64,000 nt of DNA from Escherichia phage anhysbys. The stretch lies in sequence record NC_052656.1. The stretch is one strand, 5' to 3'. The notes under the pieces are model-generated. The model was given only the letters and a program-made list of their open reading frames with translations, did no database searches and was not told the DNA's origin. The position numbers and the translations under genes are program-made. This document shows, piece by piece, positions 50,542 through 62,468 of the stretch (position 1 is its first letter; every line of letters begins with the position of its first letter).

Positions 50542-51051
50542 TTAAACAAAATAAAATGGTTGAGAGAGGCCCAAACGATTCTTTGGGTCGTATACATACC
50601 AAGCGTATGCTGTTTTATCTGTTCCACCTGCAACAAACGAAGGCCGTTCTGAAAGGACTATAAGGTTTGTTGGTGGATTCTTTTGATGGAACTCTCGTCG
50701 TTTCTTTGACTCCAAGAAGCCCAACCGAAGAAGATAAATACAAACATCCGCCTCTTTTAAGCTCTTTTCCAAGAACTCCATTGCTAACTTAAATGGAGGA
50801 TTTGTGATTATAATGTCGGGACGATTTTCCCATTCATGACTAAAATAATCTTTACCTTCTTCAAGTTCGCAATATTCTGAACCTTCAGGAAAATGGCGAT
50901 AAATCGCTTCAGCTTCACCTCTGCAAGGTTCTGCAAAAACCCAACCTTCTTCCTTTAGATTTTTGAAATCTATAACACTAAACAAACTATTGATTGCTTT
51001 TTGCGGTGTCGGATAATAATCGCTCGTTGGGCGATCATAATCTAATGCCAT
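50542..51051 (-). CDS. putative DNA N6-adenine/N4-cytosine methyltransferase (small, NPPF motif)
   Basis: IIITNPPF catalytic tetrapeptide; YYPTP near N-terminus; 169 aa. Confidence 0.55.
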   Translation of the reverse strand: MALDYDRPTSDYYPTPQKAINSLFSVIDFKNLKEEGWVFAEPCRGEAEAIYRHFPEGSEYCELEEGKDYFSHEWENRPDIIITNPPFKLAMEFLEKSLKEADVCIYLLRLGFLESKKRREFHQKNPPTNLIVLSERPSFVAGGTDKTAYAWYVYDPKNRLGLSQPFYFV

Positions 51052-51514: not shown

Positions 51515-52207
51515 TTAAATAGCGGTTCCTTCGAAATCCGCCACATTTACGAGATTAATATTTTCAGATTTAGAAGTCAAGTTGTTTTCTGCAACAGATT
51601 TTTCTTCAGTATCCGCCTCGTTACCTGCCACGTTACGAGGTTCTTCTTCACCGTAGGGATTACCGAATTTCAAAAGATTGATCAATTCTTCTTTGGAGAA
51701 GTTTTCTAAATCATCATCTGTTAATTCAATAATCTCGTCTTGTTCTTCAATAAATGTTTCACCACCAGAAAAAGCATCTCGCTTTTTAGCTACTTCCATA
51801 GCCTGTTCTGGTGTTGCTCCTGCATCAAGAGCAGCTAAAGCAAAGTCTGACCCGCTTCCTACCGCATAATATTCTTCATCAATCGGATATGCACGTGTTG
51901 GGTTGTTACCTTCGTGCAGGAAAATACGTCCGTCTGGATGAACAACAAGTGCAATAAACTCTTCATCTTCTTTATCTGGATCAGAGTGAATCATCAAACC
52001 AGGGACAGCATCACGTGCTGCTTCGCACTGTAGATTTTGTTCAAACCATTGAAAGAAAGAAAGCACGGAGGTCAGACGACCAGCACCACCTACAAGGTAA
52101 TCTCCAATTTTTCGGACCTTTTTGAAATTAATAGAATCTACACGTCCACCAAAAGTTACCTTACCGTCACTCAAAATCTTATTTTTGGTCGCAATAATTG
52201 TCGTCAC
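51515..52207 (-). CDS. HslV-like N-terminal-threonine peptidase with acidic C-terminal extension
   Basis: MTTIIATKNK (Thr after Met), KKVRKIGDYLVGGAG, YAVGSGSDFALAALDAG match HslV/ClpQ blocks from memory. Confidence 0.65.
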   Translation of the reverse strand: MTTIIATKNKILSDGKVTFGGRVDSINFKKVRKIGDYLVGGAGRLTSVLSFFQWFEQNLQCEAARDAVPGLMIHSDPDKEDEEFIALVVHPDGRIFLHEGNNPTRAYPIDEEYYAVGSGSDFALAALDAGATPEQAMEVAKKRDAFSGGETFIEEQDEIIELTDDDLENFSKEELINLLKFGNPYGEEEPRNVAGNEADTEEKSVAENNLTSKSENINLVNVADFEGTAI

Positions 52208-52742: not shown

Positions 52743-53501
52743 TTAAATAAACACTTCAGTAATCAGTTTAGACAAACGTCCACGTTTATTATCGTCCGTT
52801 GTCAGTTCAACATATCCAATAAAATCTACAATTGGCTCACGAACACCTTCTTCATTCTCTGGATATAAAAGTTCCAAAATTTGATGCAGACCATTGCTAC
52901 GTTTTTTAATTGCATATGTCTGGCGAACATCGCCTAATACAATAACATGCGTATTAATACCTGCACGTTCAATAAGAAGTTTAAGTGTTTCTGTTGACAT
53001 AAGTTGTGCTTCGTCAATAATGACGATTGTATTATCCAGGGTAGCCCCCAACAAATAGTTAGGAATATTCAATTCGATCTTACCTGATCCAATATCGTTT
53101 TCCAATTTGTTGGCTGTCATGAATTGCTGGAAAATACGTTTTGTAGATTCATAGTGTGCTGCTAGTTTATCTGTTTTATCCCCAGACAAGAAACCAATCT
53201 GGTCATCTCCGACTTCAGTAGGGTTCTTGATAAAAAGTAGTTTACGGAAGTCTCCTGAACGAAGCATCTGCAAAGCTTTCCATAAAGCAACAGAGGTTTT
53301 ACCAGTCCCTGCCGGAGCATTTACAACAGTCAGATCATTCCAAATCATGCTTTGAACAATCTTATTTTGGTCCCCTTCAGGCATAAATTCATCTAAACGG
53401 TAATCGTCATTACCTACCGCTTTTGCTGCATAACGGCTTTCAATCTTTGCTGAATTAGCCAGTTTCTGCCGTTGTGTTTTAGCTGCGGTTTTATTTCCCA
53501 T
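52743..53501 (-). CDS. phoH: PhoH-like ATPase
   Basis: Walker A NAPAGTGKTS; Walker B VIIDEAQ; start refined to MGNKTAAKT (AAAGGAG RBS) to clear hairpin and lysozyme. Confidence 0.8.
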   Translation of the reverse strand: MGNKTAAKTQRQKLANSAKIESRYAAKAVGNDDYRLDEFMPEGDQNKIVQSMIWNDLTVVNAPAGTGKTSVALWKALQMLRSGDFRKLLFIKNPTEVGDDQIGFLSGDKTDKLAAHYESTKRIFQQFMTANKLENDIGSGKIELNIPNYLLGATLDNTIVIIDEAQLMSTETLKLLIERAGINTHVIVLGDVRQTYAIKKRSNGLHQILELLYPENEEGVREPIVDFIGYVELTTDDNKRGRLSKLITEVFI

Positions 53502-53518
53502 AGTAGCACTCCTTTTAG

Positions 53519-53536
53519 AAGGGGCCGAAGCCCCTT
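53519..53536 (-). other. intercistronic CUUCGG-type hairpin
   Basis: Minus-strand AAGGGGC-UUCG-GCCCCUU between lysozyme and phoH. Confidence 0.55.
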
Positions 53537-53538
53537 TA

Positions 53539-54039
53539 TTAGTTGTAAGCATCTAAAGTTCCAGAAGTCAGAACTTTAATTACTCGTTCAGCACGGTTTG
53601 GCGTCTGGCTATACCATCGGCTTTTACGCATGTTTTTACCTGCTTGAGTATAATATGCATTGCTGATTAAAGTCAAGCTATTTTGAAACCCTTCAGCACC
53701 TTTTAACCCCAACTGGAAAACCATGTTGATTATTCCCAATTTACGAGTATCACTAACCTTATCATAGATTGGTGATAAGATAGTACTGTTTTTTATGTCT
53801 CTCTTCACTTTTGCAACATCGTCAGCAAAGATTTGACGGGCTTCTTTTTCTGTGATAACTCCATTAGTCTTACGACCAAGAAGATTATCTAAGATTTGAA
53901 TAGCCTTTGCTTTATCTTTTATTTTAGTCAGAAGGTGTCCTATGCCGACTGTCCAATAACCAAGATGGTCTTGATAAACAGTAAGCTTCAGTCCTTCATC
54001 GACTCGTAGCATATCAAACTCATCTACTACTTTAGCCAT
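53539..54039 (-). CDS. T4-type lysozyme (endolysin)
   Basis: MLRVDEGLKLTVYQDHLGYWTVGIGHLLTK ... INMVFQLG ... KSRWYSQTPNRAERVI closely parallels T4 gene e. Confidence 0.9.
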   Translation of the reverse strand: MAKVVDEFDMLRVDEGLKLTVYQDHLGYWTVGIGHLLTKIKDKAKAIQILDNLLGRKTNGVITEKEARQIFADDVAKVKRDIKNSTILSPIYDKVSDTRKLGIINMVFQLGLKGAEGFQNSLTLISNAYYTQAGKNMRKSRWYSQTPNRAERVIKVLTSGTLDAYN

Positions 54040-54046
54040 TTACTTC

Positions 54047-54196
54047 CTACTCGTCGTCTCCTACTCCGTGATCCAACTCGTTAAACAACAGATGTTCTGG
54101 AGAAGTTTCACGTTTTGGTTTCGTTTTCTTTATGTTGGACTTCAGCTCATTTGCCAAAGCACGAGAAAAGATCTTACGTTTCTGTTTACTTTTCAT
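54047..54196 (-). CDS. small basic protein (~49 aa)
   Basis: Own translation MKSKQKRKIFSRALANELKSNIKKTKPKRETSPEHLLFNELDH... Confidence 0.35.
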   Translation of the reverse strand: MKSKQKRKIFSRALANELKSNIKKTKPKRETSPEHLLFNELDHGVGDDE

Positions 54197-54201
54197 AATT
54201 G

Positions 54202-54462
54202 TTACTCCGCAATTTGAGCCATGAGATCACGCAGTTCGGTAAAACCGCCTACGTATGTTACCTCCCCGTTCACTTCAGACAGAATTTGTGGAAATGTGCG
54301 TGGAGGAACTCCGGTAAGATCAACAACTGTTTTAGTCATTGATTCTAAATCATAGTCTTGATCAAGACTTAAATATTCAAACTGTTTATTGCGCATGGTT
54401 AATAGTTGTTTTGACATTTCGCAAAATTGACAGTTAGGTTTACCAAAAATTACAAATTCCAT
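54202..54462 (-). CDS. glutaredoxin/NrdH-like redoxin
   Basis: CQFC active site near N-terminus (FGKPNCQFCEMSK); 86 aa; adjacent to nrdAB. Confidence 0.75.
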   Translation of the reverse strand: MEFVIFGKPNCQFCEMSKQLLTMRNKQFEYLSLDQDYDLESMTKTVVDLTGVPPRTFPQILSEVNGEVTYVGGFTELRDLMAQIAE

Positions 54463-55304
54463 TACCTCTCCTTATTAAGTAATACTGCTAAAGACTGTTC
54501 AATACCTTTATTTAAATCTGATTTTGTAAGATAGTGACTGGTTACTAATTGTGACTTCACCGGACGTGCTGCTGGAGCATTATAGGTTGAAGCTGATACC
54601 GCCGATATCTTAACAGGTTCTGGCATCTGTGTCAAGATCTTTTCCGCAAACTCCGCCCAAGAAATAAAATGGCTTCCTGCAAAATGGTAAGTCTTAACAG
54701 ACCTTGACCAACCTGTTTTTAATACTTCAAAAATAGCTTCTGCTAAATCTGGAGCATATGTTGGACAAGAGAACTGATCAGCAACAACAATAAAATCACG
54801 TTGTCCATCATTATAGCGAGACAACATGGTTTTTAGAAAGTTATTTCCAAATTCGCTATATACCGAGGCTGTTCGAATAATATATGCATTTGGGTTAACT
54901 CCTCGCACCATTTTTTCACCGAGTTCTTTCGTATACCCATAATTGTTTATTGGGTTAGGTGTAGTATCTTCAAAAATAGGATGAGAATAATTAAAAATAT
55001 AATCTGTAGAAATATGCACAAAATCAATTTTAAGTTTGCTGCACACTGCCGCAATATTTGCAGGTCCATACGCATTAACAGCCAAAGCAGTAGCAAAATC
55101 ATGTTCTGCTTTATCTACAGCCGTATAAGCAGCGCAGTTAATAACACCGTCTACATAATCTTCAACAATAGCGTTTCGCACAGCTTCAAAATTTGTAATA
55201 TCTACACGTTCTTTAGGATAAATTAAAGATACATTCGAAGGAACCACTTTACGTAAAGCTTGTCCCAGTTGTCCATTACCACCTAATACCAGATATGTTA
55301 GCAT
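54462..55304 (-). CDS. rmlD: dTDP-4-dehydrorhamnose reductase-like (RmlD family)
   Basis: N-terminal Rossmann LVLGGNGQLGQAL; 280 aa; overlaps rmlC by 7 nt. Confidence 0.75.
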   Translation of the reverse strand: MLTYLVLGGNGQLGQALRKVVPSNVSLIYPKERVDITNFEAVRNAIVEDYVDGVINCAAYTAVDKAEHDFATALAVNAYGPANIAAVCSKLKIDFVHISTDYIFNYSHPIFEDTTPNPINNYGYTKELGEKMVRGVNPNAYIIRTASVYSEFGNNFLKTMLSRYNDGQRDFIVVADQFSCPTYAPDLAEAIFEVLKTGWSRSVKTYHFAGSHFISWAEFAEKILTQMPEPVKISAVSASTYNAPAARPVKSQLVTSHYLTKSDLNKGIEQSLAVLLNKER

Positions 55305-55864
55305 ACACCCTCACTACGTAGCTGTTGAAAAGATTTAGCCATTGCATCTTTTGTTGATAAAATAGGTTTAAAATCTTCATCAAAAATCATATCAAAGCCC
55401 CAATCGATCCCTATATCAGGATCATCCCAACGTAAACTTTGTTCACTAGAAGGGTCGTATGGAGTTGTGCATTTGTATTCAAAGATAGCATCCATACTCA
55501 AAACTATAAAACCGTGTGCCAAACCAGGTGGAAGCCAAAACTGCGTATGGTGTCGTGCACGAAGAACAACACCGTCCCAAGCACCGTAAGTTGGACTATC
55601 TTTACGTAAATCTACAGCGAAATCCAATACTTCTCCACTTACACAACGAACAAGCTTACCTTGCGGGTTGTTTGTTTGGAAGTGCATTCCTCGCAAAACA
55701 CCGAAGTTTGATTTAGACATGTTATCTTGAACGAAAGTTTGTCTACCAATAATATCTTCGTATTTTTGTTCATTGTATGTTTCTAAAAAGAAACCACGAT
55801 CATCTTTATAAACGTCTGGTTTGATAATTACCGCACCTTCAATTTTTGTTTTTTCTACTTTCAT
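55298..55864 (-). CDS. rmlC: dTDP-4-dehydrorhamnose 3,5-epimerase (RmlC cupin)
   Basis: DDRGFFLETY, LRGMHFQ, KLVRCVSGEVLDFAVDLRKDSPTYG, PPGLAHGF match RmlC. Confidence 0.85.
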   Translation of the reverse strand: MKVEKTKIEGAVIIKPDVYKDDRGFFLETYNEQKYEDIIGRQTFVQDNMSKSNFGVLRGMHFQTNNPQGKLVRCVSGEVLDFAVDLRKDSPTYGAWDGVVLRARHHTQFWLPPGLAHGFIVLSMDAIFEYKCTTPYDPSSEQSLRWDDPDIGIDWGFDMIFDEDFKPILSTKDAMAKSFQQLRSEGVC

Positions 55865-55873
55865 TTTCTCTCC

Positions 55874-56200
55874 TTACCAGACATGTTGAGAAATAATAGT
55901 TTCCGTTTTAATGTTATATTTTTCAAGTAGCTCTGCATAGGCTTCTTTTGCATTCTCATTTAATTGCTCAAGATCTACAGCTACGCTTCCTTCTCCGCCT
56001 TCTAAATAAATACCATATATGCAATAAGACTCATCAGCATCGTAGAAAGGAGAGATGCGACTTAAGTCCAGACCTTCTTGTAAGAACCAGTTAAAATCTC
56101 CGTCAAATTCTTCTTCAATTCTAGGATCTTCTCCTACAGCCTCTTCCCACTTATTAAAAGGTGCACCCTGTAACATACGCCATTCGATATCAATACCCAT
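55874..56200 (-). CDS. hypothetical acidic protein
   Basis: ORF track 108 aa. Confidence 0.55.
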   Translation of the reverse strand: MGIDIEWRMLQGAPFNKWEEAVGEDPRIEEEFDGDFNWFLQEGLDLSRISPFYDADESYCIYGIYLEGGEGSVAVDLEQLNENAKEAYAELLEKYNIKTETIISQHVW

Positions 56201-56354
56201 TTTTCATCTCCTCCTCTTCTTGAGCAGCTTTAATAATTGCTTCATAAATATCGTAAGCAATGCCTCCACAACATCTAGCTTCGAAAGCTATTGCTTCTGC
56301 AATGTGGTCTGTTAATTCTCGTGGAATTCGGACATACTCTTTTTCACTCTCCAT
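56190..56354 (-). CDS. small hypothetical protein (~54 aa)
   Basis: Own translation MESEKEYVRIPRELTDHIAEAIAFEARCCGG...; GGAGG RBS. Confidence 0.35.
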   Translation of the reverse strand: MESEKEYVRIPRELTDHIAEAIAFEARCCGGIAYDIYEAIIKAAQEEEEMKNGY

Positions 56355-56496
56355 CTTCTACCTCCGACCCTGCTTTTTCAAATACTACTACTCGTCCTTC
56401 ACCATGACAATTCAGGCAAGGAAATGTTACCATAATTTCCACTTCCATCTGTCCAGTCCCACCACACACAGGACAAAAAATAAGTTTTTCAGCCAT
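56344..56496 (-). CDS. small zinc-ribbon protein (~50 aa)
   Basis: Own translation MAEKLIFCPVCGGTGQMEVEIMVTFPCLNCHGEGRVVVFEKAG...; AGGAGGAA RBS. Confidence 0.4.
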   Translation of the reverse strand: MAEKLIFCPVCGGTGQMEVEIMVTFPCLNCHGEGRVVVFEKAGSEVEDGE

Positions 56497-56705
56497 TATT
56501 CCTCCTTAATTATTTCAAACTTGGCAACACCATTTACAATAATATGACCACAAGACATAACTCCTAGCCAAGGATCGCCGTTTTTCTTCAGGCGTTTACC
56601 GAATACATCACAAAAACCATTCTTCATTTCGGAGGCTTCATAAGAAGCCCCTTTGTCAAAAACGTCTTTGAATGTGTCGATTATACCAACACATCTCAAA
56701 ATCAT
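56496..56705 (-). CDS. hypothetical protein
   Basis: ORF track 69 aa; immediately downstream of nrdB. Confidence 0.5.
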   Translation of the reverse strand: MILRCVGIIDTFKDVFDKGASYEASEMKNGFCDVFGKRLKKNGDPWLGVMSCGHIIVNGVAKFEIIKEE

Positions 56706-57790
56706 TAGAAGTCAAGCTCCTCATCATCAGAGAGATCTTTGTTAGCTGAATTCAATTTGTAATTAGTTAACTGAATCTCTTGGGCTGCTGACTGAATCAA
56801 ATCAGGATTCAACCATTTTTCCATCCAAGCTAAAGGACTATGTTTAGGTGCTTTAAACTTGGCTTTCATTTTCAATCGACGATAAATAGGAGCAGCATTG
56901 AAATAAACCCACTGTTTAGACAATTCGGCGTTAAGACCTACAATAAAACGACCTTCACTAAACAGGTAGTCACACCACTGTTCCTCTTGTTCAACAACAG
57001 TGTCGAGGATCAAAGTCAACTCTTCAATATTGTCTTCGTAAATTTTACGCCAAATTGGGTCATGCATCAATGCATCAATTACAGCATAATCCATCTTAAC
57101 ATGCAAGATTTCATCTAGCATAATTTTCTGGATCAGCTTACAAGCCCCAACAAACAATTGTTGTTCTGCCATAGCAAAAGTAGCAGAGAAGGAAGATATA
57201 AACTGAATACCTTCTAATCCAATCAGGGCTACCATCCCTTTAAGAATCAGCAATCGAAGTTCATCGTTAGCTTCAATCAATCCTAGAGCATACTTATGAC
57301 CAGCTTCTTCCAACTGACCCATGATATCAGCAATGATACCCATACGATTGAAAATTTTATCATTAATCATAATCTGATTGATGACTTCAATTGGATCTGG
57401 AGTACATTGACGGATTATTTCAGAATACGTTAACGCATGGAGAACTTCCATTTCACTCTGCTTCATCATCATAGCACAGGCTTCATTGTTACTCAAGAAT
57501 GGAGAGAACAAAGTGATGATTGATTTTGCAAGAGAATCATTTTCCCATTGGAACGATAAGTTTTTAATCATAACATCATAGTTGTTTTTAGAACAAGCTA
57601 CGAAATCTTTACGTGTCTGATCCAAGTTAACTTCGTTTTCATCCCAATCTTGTGCTTTTTGAAGTTTGTAGAGTTTGTGCATTTCTGGATAAGTTACGTT
57701 AACAGAATCAAAGATCCCTAATTGCTCCCCCAAAAATACTGGATATTTTCCTGTTTTGTAAACTTCGTTGTGTAAATTAATTGCTGCCAT
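56705..57790 (-). CDS. nrdB: ribonucleotide reductase class Ia beta subunit
   Basis: Di-iron/tyrosyl radical blocks EMEVLHALTYSE and DEILHVKMDY; 361 aa. Confidence 0.9.
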   Translation of the reverse strand: MAAINLHNEVYKTGKYPVFLGEQLGIFDSVNVTYPEMHKLYKLQKAQDWDENEVNLDQTRKDFVACSKNNYDVMIKNLSFQWENDSLAKSIITLFSPFLSNNEACAMMMKQSEMEVLHALTYSEIIRQCTPDPIEVINQIMINDKIFNRMGIIADIMGQLEEAGHKYALGLIEANDELRLLILKGMVALIGLEGIQFISSFSATFAMAEQQLFVGACKLIQKIMLDEILHVKMDYAVIDALMHDPIWRKIYEDNIEELTLILDTVVEQEEQWCDYLFSEGRFIVGLNAELSKQWVYFNAAPIYRRLKMKAKFKAPKHSPLAWMEKWLNPDLIQSAAQEIQLTNYKLNSANKDLSDDEELDF

Positions 57791-57810
57791 TTAAAATTCT
57801 CCTCAATAAA

Positions 57811-57827
57811 AAGGGGCCGAAGCCCCT
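57811..57827 (-). other. intercistronic CUUCGG-type hairpin
   Basis: Minus-strand AGGGGC-UUCG-GCCCCU + UUUUUAUU between nrdA and nrdB. Confidence 0.6.
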
Positions 57828-57834
57828 AGTTTCA

Positions 57835-60851: not shown

Positions 60852-61850
60852 TCACCATTTAGTATGATTTGTTAAAAGTTGACGATGTTGAATCCAGCCT
60901 TTGAAATTGCCAGACCAAAACTTACCATTACGATCTACATGGGTAATACCTGGTTCCCAAGAGTTAAAATCCCAAGGAGCATTGATAAACAAATCTTCAA
61001 AACAGTTCTCCCCATATTGTTCGCATGTTTCTTGCATTGGGGTGGCTTGATGTTCAAACGGAGAAGCATGAACCTTGCGCCCAGTCAGCAAACGACCATA
61101 GATATCTAAAGCTTTATCTTTAGTTGCATTCAAACGACGATAGCTAACCTGTGCACAACACGAAGCTGAAATAGCTTTGGCTTCTTCCAAAGTAAGCACA
61201 ACAACTTCTCCAGATTCATCTTGAACATAGTATCCACCAAAAACAAAATGATCGTCACCTTCTGTGCCAATATTATCATAGAAATGGTCTACATAAGGTG
61301 TGTGCCATTGCCCTGGTTTCAGCACTTCTGGTGTAGATTCTTCATACTCTTTGTGCATCTCTTTAGCCAAAGCTTCGATAGTAGGATCGGCTTCTTTGTC
61401 ATCACGTAGCCACCAGAAATTTTCATATTCTGTTGCTGTCAGAACTGTTTTAATTCGTTGGAAAGGTTCCAGAAGACGGTTTGCAACTTGTTTGTGGTAC
61501 CCTGCCAAAGAGAATTCTTCTGCAAAACGTGCTGCACTAAGCGCGGCAAGATCCCACCACTCTTGAGCAGTATAACCTGCATCAATAAGAGCATCATGGT
61601 CAACACCTTTGTCCTGCATACCAGGTTGGTTAGCCCCAAAACGATAAGGACGAGCAGGCTGATTTCGAACCATTTCGATCAGTGTTTTAACAGGTATAGC
61701 ACGGCTAGAAGCAGCATTACGACTGAACAGGCGGTGAGTCATCAGTTCTGAATGAATAATACGTGGATATTCAAGTTCGAAAGTTACAATCTCTTTTCCG
61801 TCTTCAGTGATGGAATGCGCAATAATACTAGCCGAAATCTGTTTTGTCAT
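60852..61850 (-). CDS. thyX: flavin-dependent thymidylate synthase-like (ThyX family)
   Basis: HRLFSRNAASSRA fits ThyX HR.FS....S.R signature; 332 aa, longer than typical. Confidence 0.7.
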   Translation of the reverse strand: MTKQISASIIAHSITEDGKEIVTFELEYPRIIHSELMTHRLFSRNAASSRAIPVKTLIEMVRNQPARPYRFGANQPGMQDKGVDHDALIDAGYTAQEWWDLAALSAARFAEEFSLAGYHKQVANRLLEPFQRIKTVLTATEYENFWWLRDDKEADPTIEALAKEMHKEYEESTPEVLKPGQWHTPYVDHFYDNIGTEGDDHFVFGGYYVQDESGEVVVLTLEEAKAISASCCAQVSYRRLNATKDKALDIYGRLLTGRKVHASPFEHQATPMQETCEQYGENCFEDLFINAPWDFNSWEPGITHVDRNGKFWSGNFKGWIQHRQLLTNHTKW

Positions 61851-61859
61851 TTTTTCTCC

Positions 61860-62468
61860 TTAGTTTTTAAAATTGTTCAAAGTGTTAAAAACATCCAAAC
61901 ATGTTAGCCACTGATCTTCTAAACCTGTGATCACAACATTTGGTTTTTTCTTTAGTTCTTCTAGATGGTTATCTTTATAAGGCGTATTAAAATATATTTT
62001 AACCACTTCATCTGGAAAATATAGTAGGTTATCAGCCCTGTCATCTATTGCTATATCACAAGGCAATAAGTATTTTTCTTTCGTAGCAAAAAAGCCGTTG
62101 CCAGATCCTTTGCTAAAATCAATCGTATCTAATGTTCTTAAAACATGCTTATGTTTAGAACTTAAGTGACCACCTTTTGTCACACTTGCGATCAAAAGAT
62201 TGCTACCTTTCCTTGAAACATACTTTAAGAAATCTGGCATACCTGGAACAAAACCCATTGTATCATAGAGATGAGGATTATCCAGAAATCCGTAAGGATC
62301 TATATTGAACTCCTCCCTGAAACCAGGAAAGTAGTTGGTAAGATCATAGTCTGCATTTTTTGTGAATGTGTCTATCTTAACACCAAGTCCACTAATCTTA
62401 TTCAACCATTCTAACCAAGCAACATCTAATGGAGCCACAACTAAATCCCAATCACATACTATCTGCAT
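61860..62468 (-). CDS. HAD-superfamily hydrolase (possible 5'-nucleotidase)
   Basis: N-terminal DWDLV fits HAD motif I D.D.(T/V); later IASVTKGG and IAIDDRADN. Confidence 0.55.
   Translation of the reverse strand: MQIVCDWDLVVAPLDVAWLEWLNKISGLGVKIDTFTKNADYDLTNYFPGFREEFNIDPYGFLDNPHLYDTMGFVPGMPDFLKYVSRKGSNLLIASVTKGGHLSSKHKHVLRTLDTIDFSKGSGNGFFATKEKYLLPCDIAIDDRADNLLYFPDEVVKIYFNTPYKDNHLEELKKKPNVVITGLEDQWLTCLDVFNTLNNFKN

Follow-up and report, generated by a model that had tools for sequence, protein, structure and literature searches.

Two adjacent rhamnose-pathway genes, rmlC and rmlD, in Escherichia phage anhysbys: a two-gene allele of a phage rml locus and its possible role in glycan synthesis

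The 64,000-nt stretch of Escherichia phage anhysbys analysed here (NC_052656.1; in the following, the window) carries two adjacent minus-strand genes for the closing steps of the deoxythymidine diphosphate (dTDP)-L-rhamnose pathway. rmlC (55298..55864) is predicted to encode a dTDP-4-dehydrorhamnose 3,5-epimerase of 188 aa and rmlD (54462..55304) a dTDP-4-dehydrorhamnose reductase of 280 aa. The 3' end of rmlC and the 5' start of rmlD share 7 nt, and the start of the next gene, which encodes glutaredoxin (grx, 54202..54462, likewise on the minus strand), sits on the rmlD stop codon (TAATG). The minus-strand order across the locus is nrdA, nrdB, four small open reading frames (ORFs), rmlC, rmlD, grx, a further small ORF, a lysozyme gene and phoH, with grx a member of an ancestral nrdAB-grx backbone. 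An earlier note on this DNA, written from the letters alone, had called an RmlC and an adjacent RmlD at this place, and the call is borne out to the exact coordinates.

RmlC matches the Pfam family PF00908 (dTDP_sugar_isom) with an E-value of 1e-66 and the NCBIfam equivalog TIGR01221 over residues 2-181 of 188 (225.4 bits, cut-off 155.75). RmlD matches PF04321 (RmlD_sub_bind) with an E-value of 1.5e-73 and also passes its equivalog cut-off, that of TIGR01214, by a narrow margin (239.5 bits, cut-off 224.05). In PHROGs the two proteins fall into phrog_8784 (dTDP-4-dehydrorhamnose 3,5-epimerase) and phrog_540 (nucleotide-sugar epimerase), respectively. Among solved structures RmlC is best matched by the Salmonella RmlC 1dzr (E 4e-56); with E-values of 4e-56 to 1e-34 for RmlC structures as against 9e-30 for NovW, 6e-26 for EvaD-type enzymes and 4e-26 for ChmJ, it is clearly nearer to the true 3,5-epimerases than to the mono-epimerases. 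The best solved-structure match of RmlD is the Bacillus anthracis RmlD 3sc6 (E about 1e-44 to 2.5e-44), followed by the Clostridium enzyme 1vl0 (E 1e-43) and the Salmonella RmlD 1kbz (E 9e-29). As judged by profile and alignment, the matches of both proteins are far beyond chance. Residues H61, K70, Y130 and D173 of RmlC align with H63, K73, Y133 and D170 of 1dzr, in which H63-D170 is the catalytic His-Asp dyad, Y133 the Tyr acid and K73 the enolate-stabilising Lys. RmlD has the N-terminal GxxGxxG motif for NAD(P)H (GGNGQLG, residues 8-14) and the triad of the short-chain dehydrogenases/reductases (SDR), T100, Y122 and K126 (Y122xxxK126), aligned with 3sc6 and 1vl0. The active-site residues on which the earlier note had made its call depend, the His and Tyr of RmlC and the YxxxK of RmlD, are all found, and both genes are confirmed by alignment as genuine, with all predicted catalytic residues kept.

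About 60 GenBank phage records of Phapecoctavirus, the phAPEC8-like genus within the Stephanstirmvirinae, match the region at 98-99.5% identity, those of phages dw-ec and ETEC-TG best of all, and by this identity the window is that of a Phapecoctavirus, a phAPEC8-like E. coli myophage. A search of IMG/VR with RmlD returns one close relative only. The reductase and the 3,5-epimerase are already annotated in dozens of Phapecoctavirus records, and Olsen et al. (2020) called the rml genes of the genus peculiar and proposed a rhamnose glycosylation of hydroxymethylated nucleotides (PMC7552041), so that both the genes and the idea of DNA glycosylation are already in the literature. A literature search found no functional study of the rml or glycosyltransferase (GT) genes in phi92, Justusliebigvirus or Phapecoctavirus. 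As a genome-scan finding the genes are therefore ordinary, being correctly annotated in many records and with their oddity in print. What is added here is that the two-gene state represents a cleanly delimited allele subject to recombination, that rmlB-rmlA behaves as an exchangeable cassette, that the rml locus is inserted in a backbone and that it is co-distributed with a GT cluster. Among the records matched by 53500-57000, Phapecoctavirus genomes of more than 98% identity are deposited as phages of Campylobacter (B15), Acinetobacter (ABPW7) and Klebsiella (ZCKP1), and Pseudomonas phage PsgM04F is a more divergent record of the Phapecoctavirus type; the host labels of these four records look doubtful.

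The genus is polymorphic immediately upstream of rmlC. In phAPEC8 the coding-strand order is hyp108, rmlB, rmlA, rmlC, rmlD, grx, whereas in the window and in ETEC-TG rmlC comes directly after hyp108, a conserved 108-aa ORF (55874..56200, minus strand; phrog_15453) that in Stephanstirmvirinae and IMG/VR relatives always directly precedes the rml cassette. tblastn with the phAPEC8 proteins finds no match to RmlA or RmlB in the window, in line with the earlier note, and none in the complete 149,880-bp genome of the 99.4% identical ETEC-TG; because this whole-genome search is empty, rmlA and rmlB have not, in this genome type, been relocated to the rest of the genome, where the note had proposed to look for them. 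Neither the window nor ETEC-TG holds a complete phage-encoded RmlABCD pathway, of which RmlA and RmlB are found in phAPEC8. The allelic difference is a clean 1,876-bp rmlB-rmlA block between two copies of the 5-bp Shine-Dalgarno sequence GGAGA. The indel site of the window (55865..55873, minus strand) reads TAA-GGAGA-GAAA-ATG on the coding strand, a junction that is the same in 10 of 10 two-gene genomes examined, and it is here that the block lies in four-gene congeners, the phAPEC8 junctions being TAA-GGAGA-ACTG-ATG(rmlB)...GC-GGAGA-GAAA-ATG(rmlC). A BLAST census finds rmlCD at an identity of at least 95% in 63 phage records and rmlBA at an identity of at least 90% in 43, both counts including RefSeq duplicates; about one third of Phapecoctavirus records have the two-gene allele and about two thirds carry rmlB-rmlA at this spot. 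The view that the phage carries only the last two steps of the pathway is therefore right for this genome type, but what it describes is one allele of a presence/absence polymorphism in the genus. A third state is seen in an IMG/VR contig of 148.7 kb (3300030441_000047, L011:3233-5840), in which rmlA, rmlC and rmlD come directly after hyp108 and only rmlB is absent.

In phAPEC8, phi92 and other Stephanstirmvirinae the four-gene cassette, whose annotation goes back to 2012, lies at the same locus between the same flanks, with rmlCD 97-99.9% identical, and differs from the window by the 1,876-bp block (PMC7552041, PMC8594841, PMC10269720). In print the two-gene allele had been noted only for ESCO37, which alone of five Phapecoctavirus isolates in a 2023 collection of phages of avian pathogenic E. 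coli has neither the thymidylyltransferase nor the dehydratase (PMC10269720). Over the length of rmlCD, 2 nt separate the window from the four-gene phage BI-EHEC and 37 nt from the two-gene phage SF1-1, a mixing of haplotypes that fits recombination between co-infecting phages, and an experimental recombinant, REC, took up rmlA and rmlB from ESCO5 (PMC10269720). The rmlC and rmlD ORFs are uninterrupted in 16 of 16 Phapecoctavirus genomes compared, and the ratios of nonsynonymous to synonymous polymorphism (pN/pS), 0.03 for rmlC and 0.11-0.15 for rmlD with two-gene and four-gene genomes indistinguishable, show the two predicted enzymes to be under purifying selection. Retained in every allele except that of the phage 'cardinal', rmlC and rmlD are shown by these comparisons to form the invariant core of the Stephanstirmvirinae rml cassette.

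The history of the cassette is best approached from its surroundings. The Vequintavirinae phages 4MG and A7_1 have the order nrdA-nrdB-one small ORF-grx-small ORFs-endolysin-phoH without rml genes, and because they keep the same backbone, comparison of gene order shows that the rml cassette was inserted between nrdB and grx in the lineage of the Stephanstirmvirinae. Since the cassette was inserted into a conserved backbone, its location near the genes for deoxynucleotide synthesis is not functional evidence, and the earlier note's hint that this position points to a nucleotide or DNA role loses its footing. The four-gene arrangement is old at the locus, because distant IMG/VR relatives with an RmlD identity of only 42-66% keep the string nrdB-small ORFs-hyp108-rmlB-rmlA-rmlC-rmlD-grx-lysozyme, with which the four-gene annotations of phi92-like Justusliebigvirus agree. 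The rmlBA copy of Phapecoctavirus is nonetheless compositionally foreign, with a GC content of 0.43 and a GC content at third codon positions (GC3) of 0.40-0.41, as against 0.37 and a fully phage-like 0.22-0.25 for rmlC and rmlD (flanking genes, 0.29-0.35). Between phAPEC8 (L001:5366-7241) and a phiWec179-like lineage (L008:2571-4447) the rmlB-rmlA block is 78-96% identical at the nucleotide level, its flanks 50-75%, and the shift in similarity falls at the edges of the block, which are the edges of the indel. On account of the foreign composition and of this change at its edges, the rmlB-rmlA block behaves as a laterally exchanged cassette. A reading of the two-gene state as a plain deletion was dropped in its polarity, as rmlBA is foreign and laterally exchanged; the two-gene genomes may have lost the block or may preserve the state that preceded its renewed acquisition. 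The idea that the genes were captured recently from the E. coli rfb cluster was likewise rejected, the enterobacterial RfbD model NF007440 scoring 118.6 against a cut-off of 308. The nearest cellular RmlD proteins in 185,579 species genomes are 37-44% identical and mostly from Bacteroidota. Compared with the bacterial RmlA-RmlB-RmlC-RmlD pathway (Salmonella 1DZR and 1KBZ, B. anthracis 3SC6), the phage proteins belong to the same two families, have the same catalytic residues and match over their full length; the differences are that the phage encodes the last two steps only, within an operon-like nrdAB-grx string, and shows no sign of recent host capture. Four-gene phage relatives have the order B-A-C-D, as against rfbB-D-A-C in E. 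coli.

The RffG/RffH-type enzymes of the host make dTDP-4-keto-6-deoxy-D-glucose, the substrate of RmlC. With phage rmlBA as a probe, an adjacent rffG/rffH-type pair is found in 5,423 of 5,426 complete E. coli genomes, annotated as rffG together with an 'rfbA' that occupies the place of rffH in the common-antigen cluster, and extra rfb copies are present in about half of the 5,426. As practically every genome carries these genes, the host can supply the substrate, which makes the diversion of host dTDP-4-keto-6-deoxyglucose suggested by the earlier note plausible. That RmlC and RmlD would together turn this host intermediate into dTDP-L-rhamnose is well supported by their predicted families and active sites.

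Candidate users of such a donor lie elsewhere in the genome, as the earlier note had thought worth checking. The annotation of ETEC-TG has four consecutive GT genes at 117160-120304 (L005:17160-20304), at a distance of about 72 kb from rmlCD and thus beyond the window, adjoining the genes for primase/helicase and DNA polymerase I. GT1 and GT2 are paralogues of 41% identity with weak GT-B matches in Pfam, and fold predictions place them as GT4-family GT-B enzymes and GT3 as having a GT-A fold, both of them generic GT folds. In Pfam, GT3 has only a sub-threshold match to TAGT (TET-associated glycosyltransferase, PF20691; E 1e-3) and GT4 has none, and an NCBIfam scan of the four proteins gives no match. 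PHROGs labels all four as glycosyltransferases and assigns GT3 also to phrog_1579 (E 6e-13), with a weak match to phrog_842 (beta-glucosyl-HMC-alpha-glucosyltransferase, where HMC is hydroxymethylcytosine) over about 40 residues (E 8e-6). No transmembrane-like segments are found in any of the four. The fold neighbours of GT1 include PglA/WlaC, WaaG and WbnH, with the T4 GTs at ranks 15 and 30, after many GT4 enzymes whose acceptors are sugars, lipids and proteins, and those of GT3 include A64R of PBCV-1 and R699 of Mimivirus. Proteins in 356 Mycobacterium phage records also match GT3, with E-values of about 1e-7 to 1e-8 and an identity of about 26%, the match being restricted to the nucleotide-sugar-binding (donor) half; the mycobacteriophage matches listed carry glycosyltransferase annotations and lie towards the right end of their genomes, that of the cluster F1 phage Maravista among them.

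The GT cluster has the same phage distribution as rmlCD. Searches with rmlCD, GT1 and GT3 alike return 105 'Escherichia', 5 'Campylobacter', 3 'Phapecoctavirus' and 3 'Justusliebigvirus' records, of which 63 are at an identity of at least 95%, together with a handful of Klebsiella phages, and the counts are not inflated by the much larger rV5-like group, as would occur if that group carried these genes. From this co-distribution it is inferred that the rml product may serve the phage GT cluster as a donor.

Taken together, the evidence makes it probable that RmlC and RmlD are functional, that their product is a donor for the phage GTs and that these build a deoxyhexose glycan on an acceptor other than DNA, preferably a virion protein. 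During infection RffH and RffG of the host pathway for enterobacterial common antigen (ECA), with RfbA and RfbB where present, would make dTDP-4-keto-6-deoxy-D-glucose, which phage RmlC and RmlD would convert to dTDP-L-rhamnose or, less likely, to its C4 epimer (6-deoxy-L-talose). The product would be the donor for the phage's own four soluble GTs some 72 kb away, which would assemble a deoxyhexose-containing glycan on a non-DNA acceptor. Virion proteins are the leading guess for this acceptor, by analogy with Che8-type mycobacteriophages, and an envelope glycan of the infected cell would be the second choice. Giant viruses such as Mimivirus, with its uridine diphosphate (UDP)-L-rhamnose pathway, and PBCV-1, with its capsid glycans, resemble this phage in encoding nucleotide-sugar synthesis together with GTs, but they infect eukaryotic hosts and use UDP- or guanosine diphosphate-linked routes, whereas the phage would work through dTDP-linked sugars and leave part of the route to the host. 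We know of no mycobacteriophage rml genes involved in Che8-type glycosylation, and of no earlier description of virion glycosylation for phages of Gram-negative bacteria. For Che8 and Rita, cluster F relatives of the matched mycobacteriophages, glycans are described on the major capsid proteins (PMC11256854, citing Freeman et al. 2023). The likeness to these phages lies in GTs encoded outside the structural module and in GT3, for which alone among the Phapecoctavirus GTs homologues can be detected in other groups of phages, these being the cluster F GTs; the differences are the identity of only about 26%, confined to the donor-binding half, the Gram-negative host and, in Stephanstirmvirinae, a glycosylation that is putative. 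It is on the mycobacteriophage GT homology and the giant-virus precedents that the preference for a virion-protein acceptor is founded. The specific proposal that rmlCD and the four co-distributed GTs put a rhamnose-containing glycan on coliphage virion proteins is tentative and of rather low probability; if it is true, two rhamnose-committing enzymes would suffice for the phage because E. coli supplies the precursor through the common-antigen pathway. Phages of Phapecoctavirus and of the phi92-like group have been isolated widely and go into therapeutic cocktails, and virion glycosylation or a change of the host surface, if true, would affect immunogenicity, host range and superinfection.

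Several observations weigh against this interpretation. The slim margin by which RmlD clears its equivalog cut-off means that the C4 stereochemistry of the predicted product is not certain. The purifying selection cannot be assigned to the two-gene background specifically, because recombination mixes two-gene and four-gene haplotypes, as the near identity of the window to BI-EHEC across rmlCD indicates. In the Justusliebigvirus 'cardinal' (PQ567651) the locus is reduced to a 302-aa in-frame chimera, in which an RmlB N-terminus is fused to an RmlD C-terminus at the 'HISTDY' motif that these SDR proteins share (L036:3887-4795); rmlA and rmlC are gone and all four GTs are intact (L037:10067-13243), so that at least one isolate can dispense with the rml pathway. 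A temperate phage integrated in Serratia sp. M24T3 (AJHJ01000054; L118:5589-7670) has, flanked by its lysis cassette and its terminase, a syntenic GT4-GT3-GT1 trio (41%, 36% and 39% identity to the Phapecoctavirus proteins), with no rml genes in the 15.7-kb prophage GT locus. Since the GTs are kept in 'cardinal' after the loss of the pathway, and three of them occur in the Serratia locus without rml genes, the GTs are not strictly dependent on phage rml genes, and the link between the two is phyletic, not obligatory.

Other uses of the two enzymes have to be set against the proposed glycan on a non-DNA acceptor. The earlier note had offered either remodelling of the cell surface or glycosylation of DNA or protein, and of these DNA is the part that fares badly. 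Transfer of rhamnose by the phage GTs to a modified base, as an evasion of restriction in the style of T4, would suit the position of rml among nucleotide-metabolism genes, the abutment of the GT cluster on primase/helicase and DNA polymerase, the weak matches of GT3 to PF20691 (below the cut-off) and phrog_842, and the published speculation of Olsen et al. (2020). In T4, HMC is glucosylated by means of the gp42 hydroxymethylase, the alpha- and beta-glucosyltransferases and UDP-glucose; the two systems would be alike in depending on a nucleotide sugar and are alike in having GT genes near replication genes, and the fold similarity of GT1 to GT-B enzymes includes the T4 alpha-glucosyltransferase, but many GT4 enzymes rank ahead of the T4 GTs, the donor here would be a dTDP-deoxyhexose, and the nrd adjacency is accounted for by insertion into a conserved backbone. 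A ThyA-family hydroxymethylase is found neither by one Pfam scan in the window nor in the annotation of ETEC-TG, the sole synthase-like gene encoding a divergent ThyX-type thymidylate synthase of 332 aa (60852-61850, minus strand; Pfam Thy1, only 35 bits), next after which stands a gene for an NT5C-like 5'-deoxynucleotidase (61860-62468, minus strand). To our knowledge, known DNA glycosylation systems use fewer than four GTs, which also counts against such a role. Furthermore, Maffei et al. (2021; PMC8594841) describe phi92-like phages, which have the full rml set and the GT cluster, as 'exceptionally susceptible' to restriction-modification systems, and HincII cut all Phapecoctavirus and Justusliebigvirus isolates of one collection, in which only three phages were resistant, two of them named as a Dhakavirus and a Tequatrovirus (PMC10269720). 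Because of the restriction-sensitive relatives, the HincII cutting and the ThyX-type enzyme, DNA is disfavoured as the least likely acceptor among the glycan readings, and its glycosylation must be considered improbable.

Remodelling of the envelope stands somewhat better, although it too is unlikely. In this scenario raised dTDP-rhamnose would allow the GTs or host rhamnosyltransferases to alter lipopolysaccharide (LPS), O-antigen or ECA-type glycans, and RmlC and RmlD would compete with the ECA branch for dTDP-4-keto-6-deoxyglucose. The consequence, an equally doubtful step, would be that superinfection is blocked or that the loss of progeny on debris is stopped. The idea is in keeping with the GT1 fold neighbours PglA/WlaC, WaaG and WbnH and with the hypothesised receptors, ECA and the outer LPS core for Phapecoctavirus and the NGR glycan for Justusliebigvirus (PMC12753057, PMC11990801). 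It sits poorly with strictly lytic phages of short cycles, with four GTs that have no membrane-spanning segments and with the annotation of the ETEC-TG genome, which includes no flippase, polymerase or ligase. A role in metabolic control is very unlikely. dTDP-L-rhamnose is an allosteric feedback inhibitor of RmlA, and its production could switch off the drain through RmlA-type enzymes and spare thymidine triphosphate (dTTP) for replication; co-location and apparent co-transcription of rmlCD with nrdB and grx and the want of an own RmlA in the two-gene allele would fit. But phage RmlA and RmlB, which would raise the drain, are part of the arrangement conserved in the subfamily, the tight co-distribution with the GTs speaks for use of the sugar as a donor, and insertion accounts for the position. 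Least credible of all is that rmlC and rmlD are functionless remnants, left by the decay of a four-gene cassette and in the course of being lost, a notion that can draw on the dispensability of the pathway in 'cardinal' and on the several partial alleles. It is at odds with the intact ORFs and conserved catalytic residues throughout the 16 genomes, with the low pN/pS of both genes, with a block removal so precise that rmlC keeps its own ribosome-binding site, and with a GC3 that is fully adapted to the phage.

As to expression, rmlC and rmlD are translationally coupled within the string that runs from nrdB to the lysozyme gene. nrdB (56705..57790, minus strand), for the beta subunit of class Ia ribonucleotide reductase, is the upstream backbone gene and apparently belongs to the same transcription unit as rmlCD. 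The string nrdB...rmlCD...grx...lysozyme is flanked by two terminator-like hairpins, both consensus matches only: one in the nrdA/nrdB spacer (57812..57827, minus strand), which may mark the upstream limit of the unit, and a GC-rich one at the lysozyme/phoH junction (53518..53537, no strand assigned), which may mark the downstream limit. A promoter scan of the region does no better than on shuffled sequence and no promoter is claimed. The nrdB/nrdA spacer itself (57791-57834) is 44 bp long in the window, while ETEC-TG has an HNH endonuclease there (L002:7332-7988), a difference that looks like a presence/absence polymorphism of a homing endonuclease.

Two further minus-strand ORFs lie elsewhere in the window. 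The one at 50542-51051 (169 aa) is named 'DNA methyltransferase' in relatives and has no Pfam match at an E-value of 1e-3 or below. The other, at 51515-52207 (230 aa), has a weak proteasome/HslV-like match (Pfam Proteasome, E 1e-5), and its counterpart in ETEC-TG is annotated as 'peptidase HslV family'.

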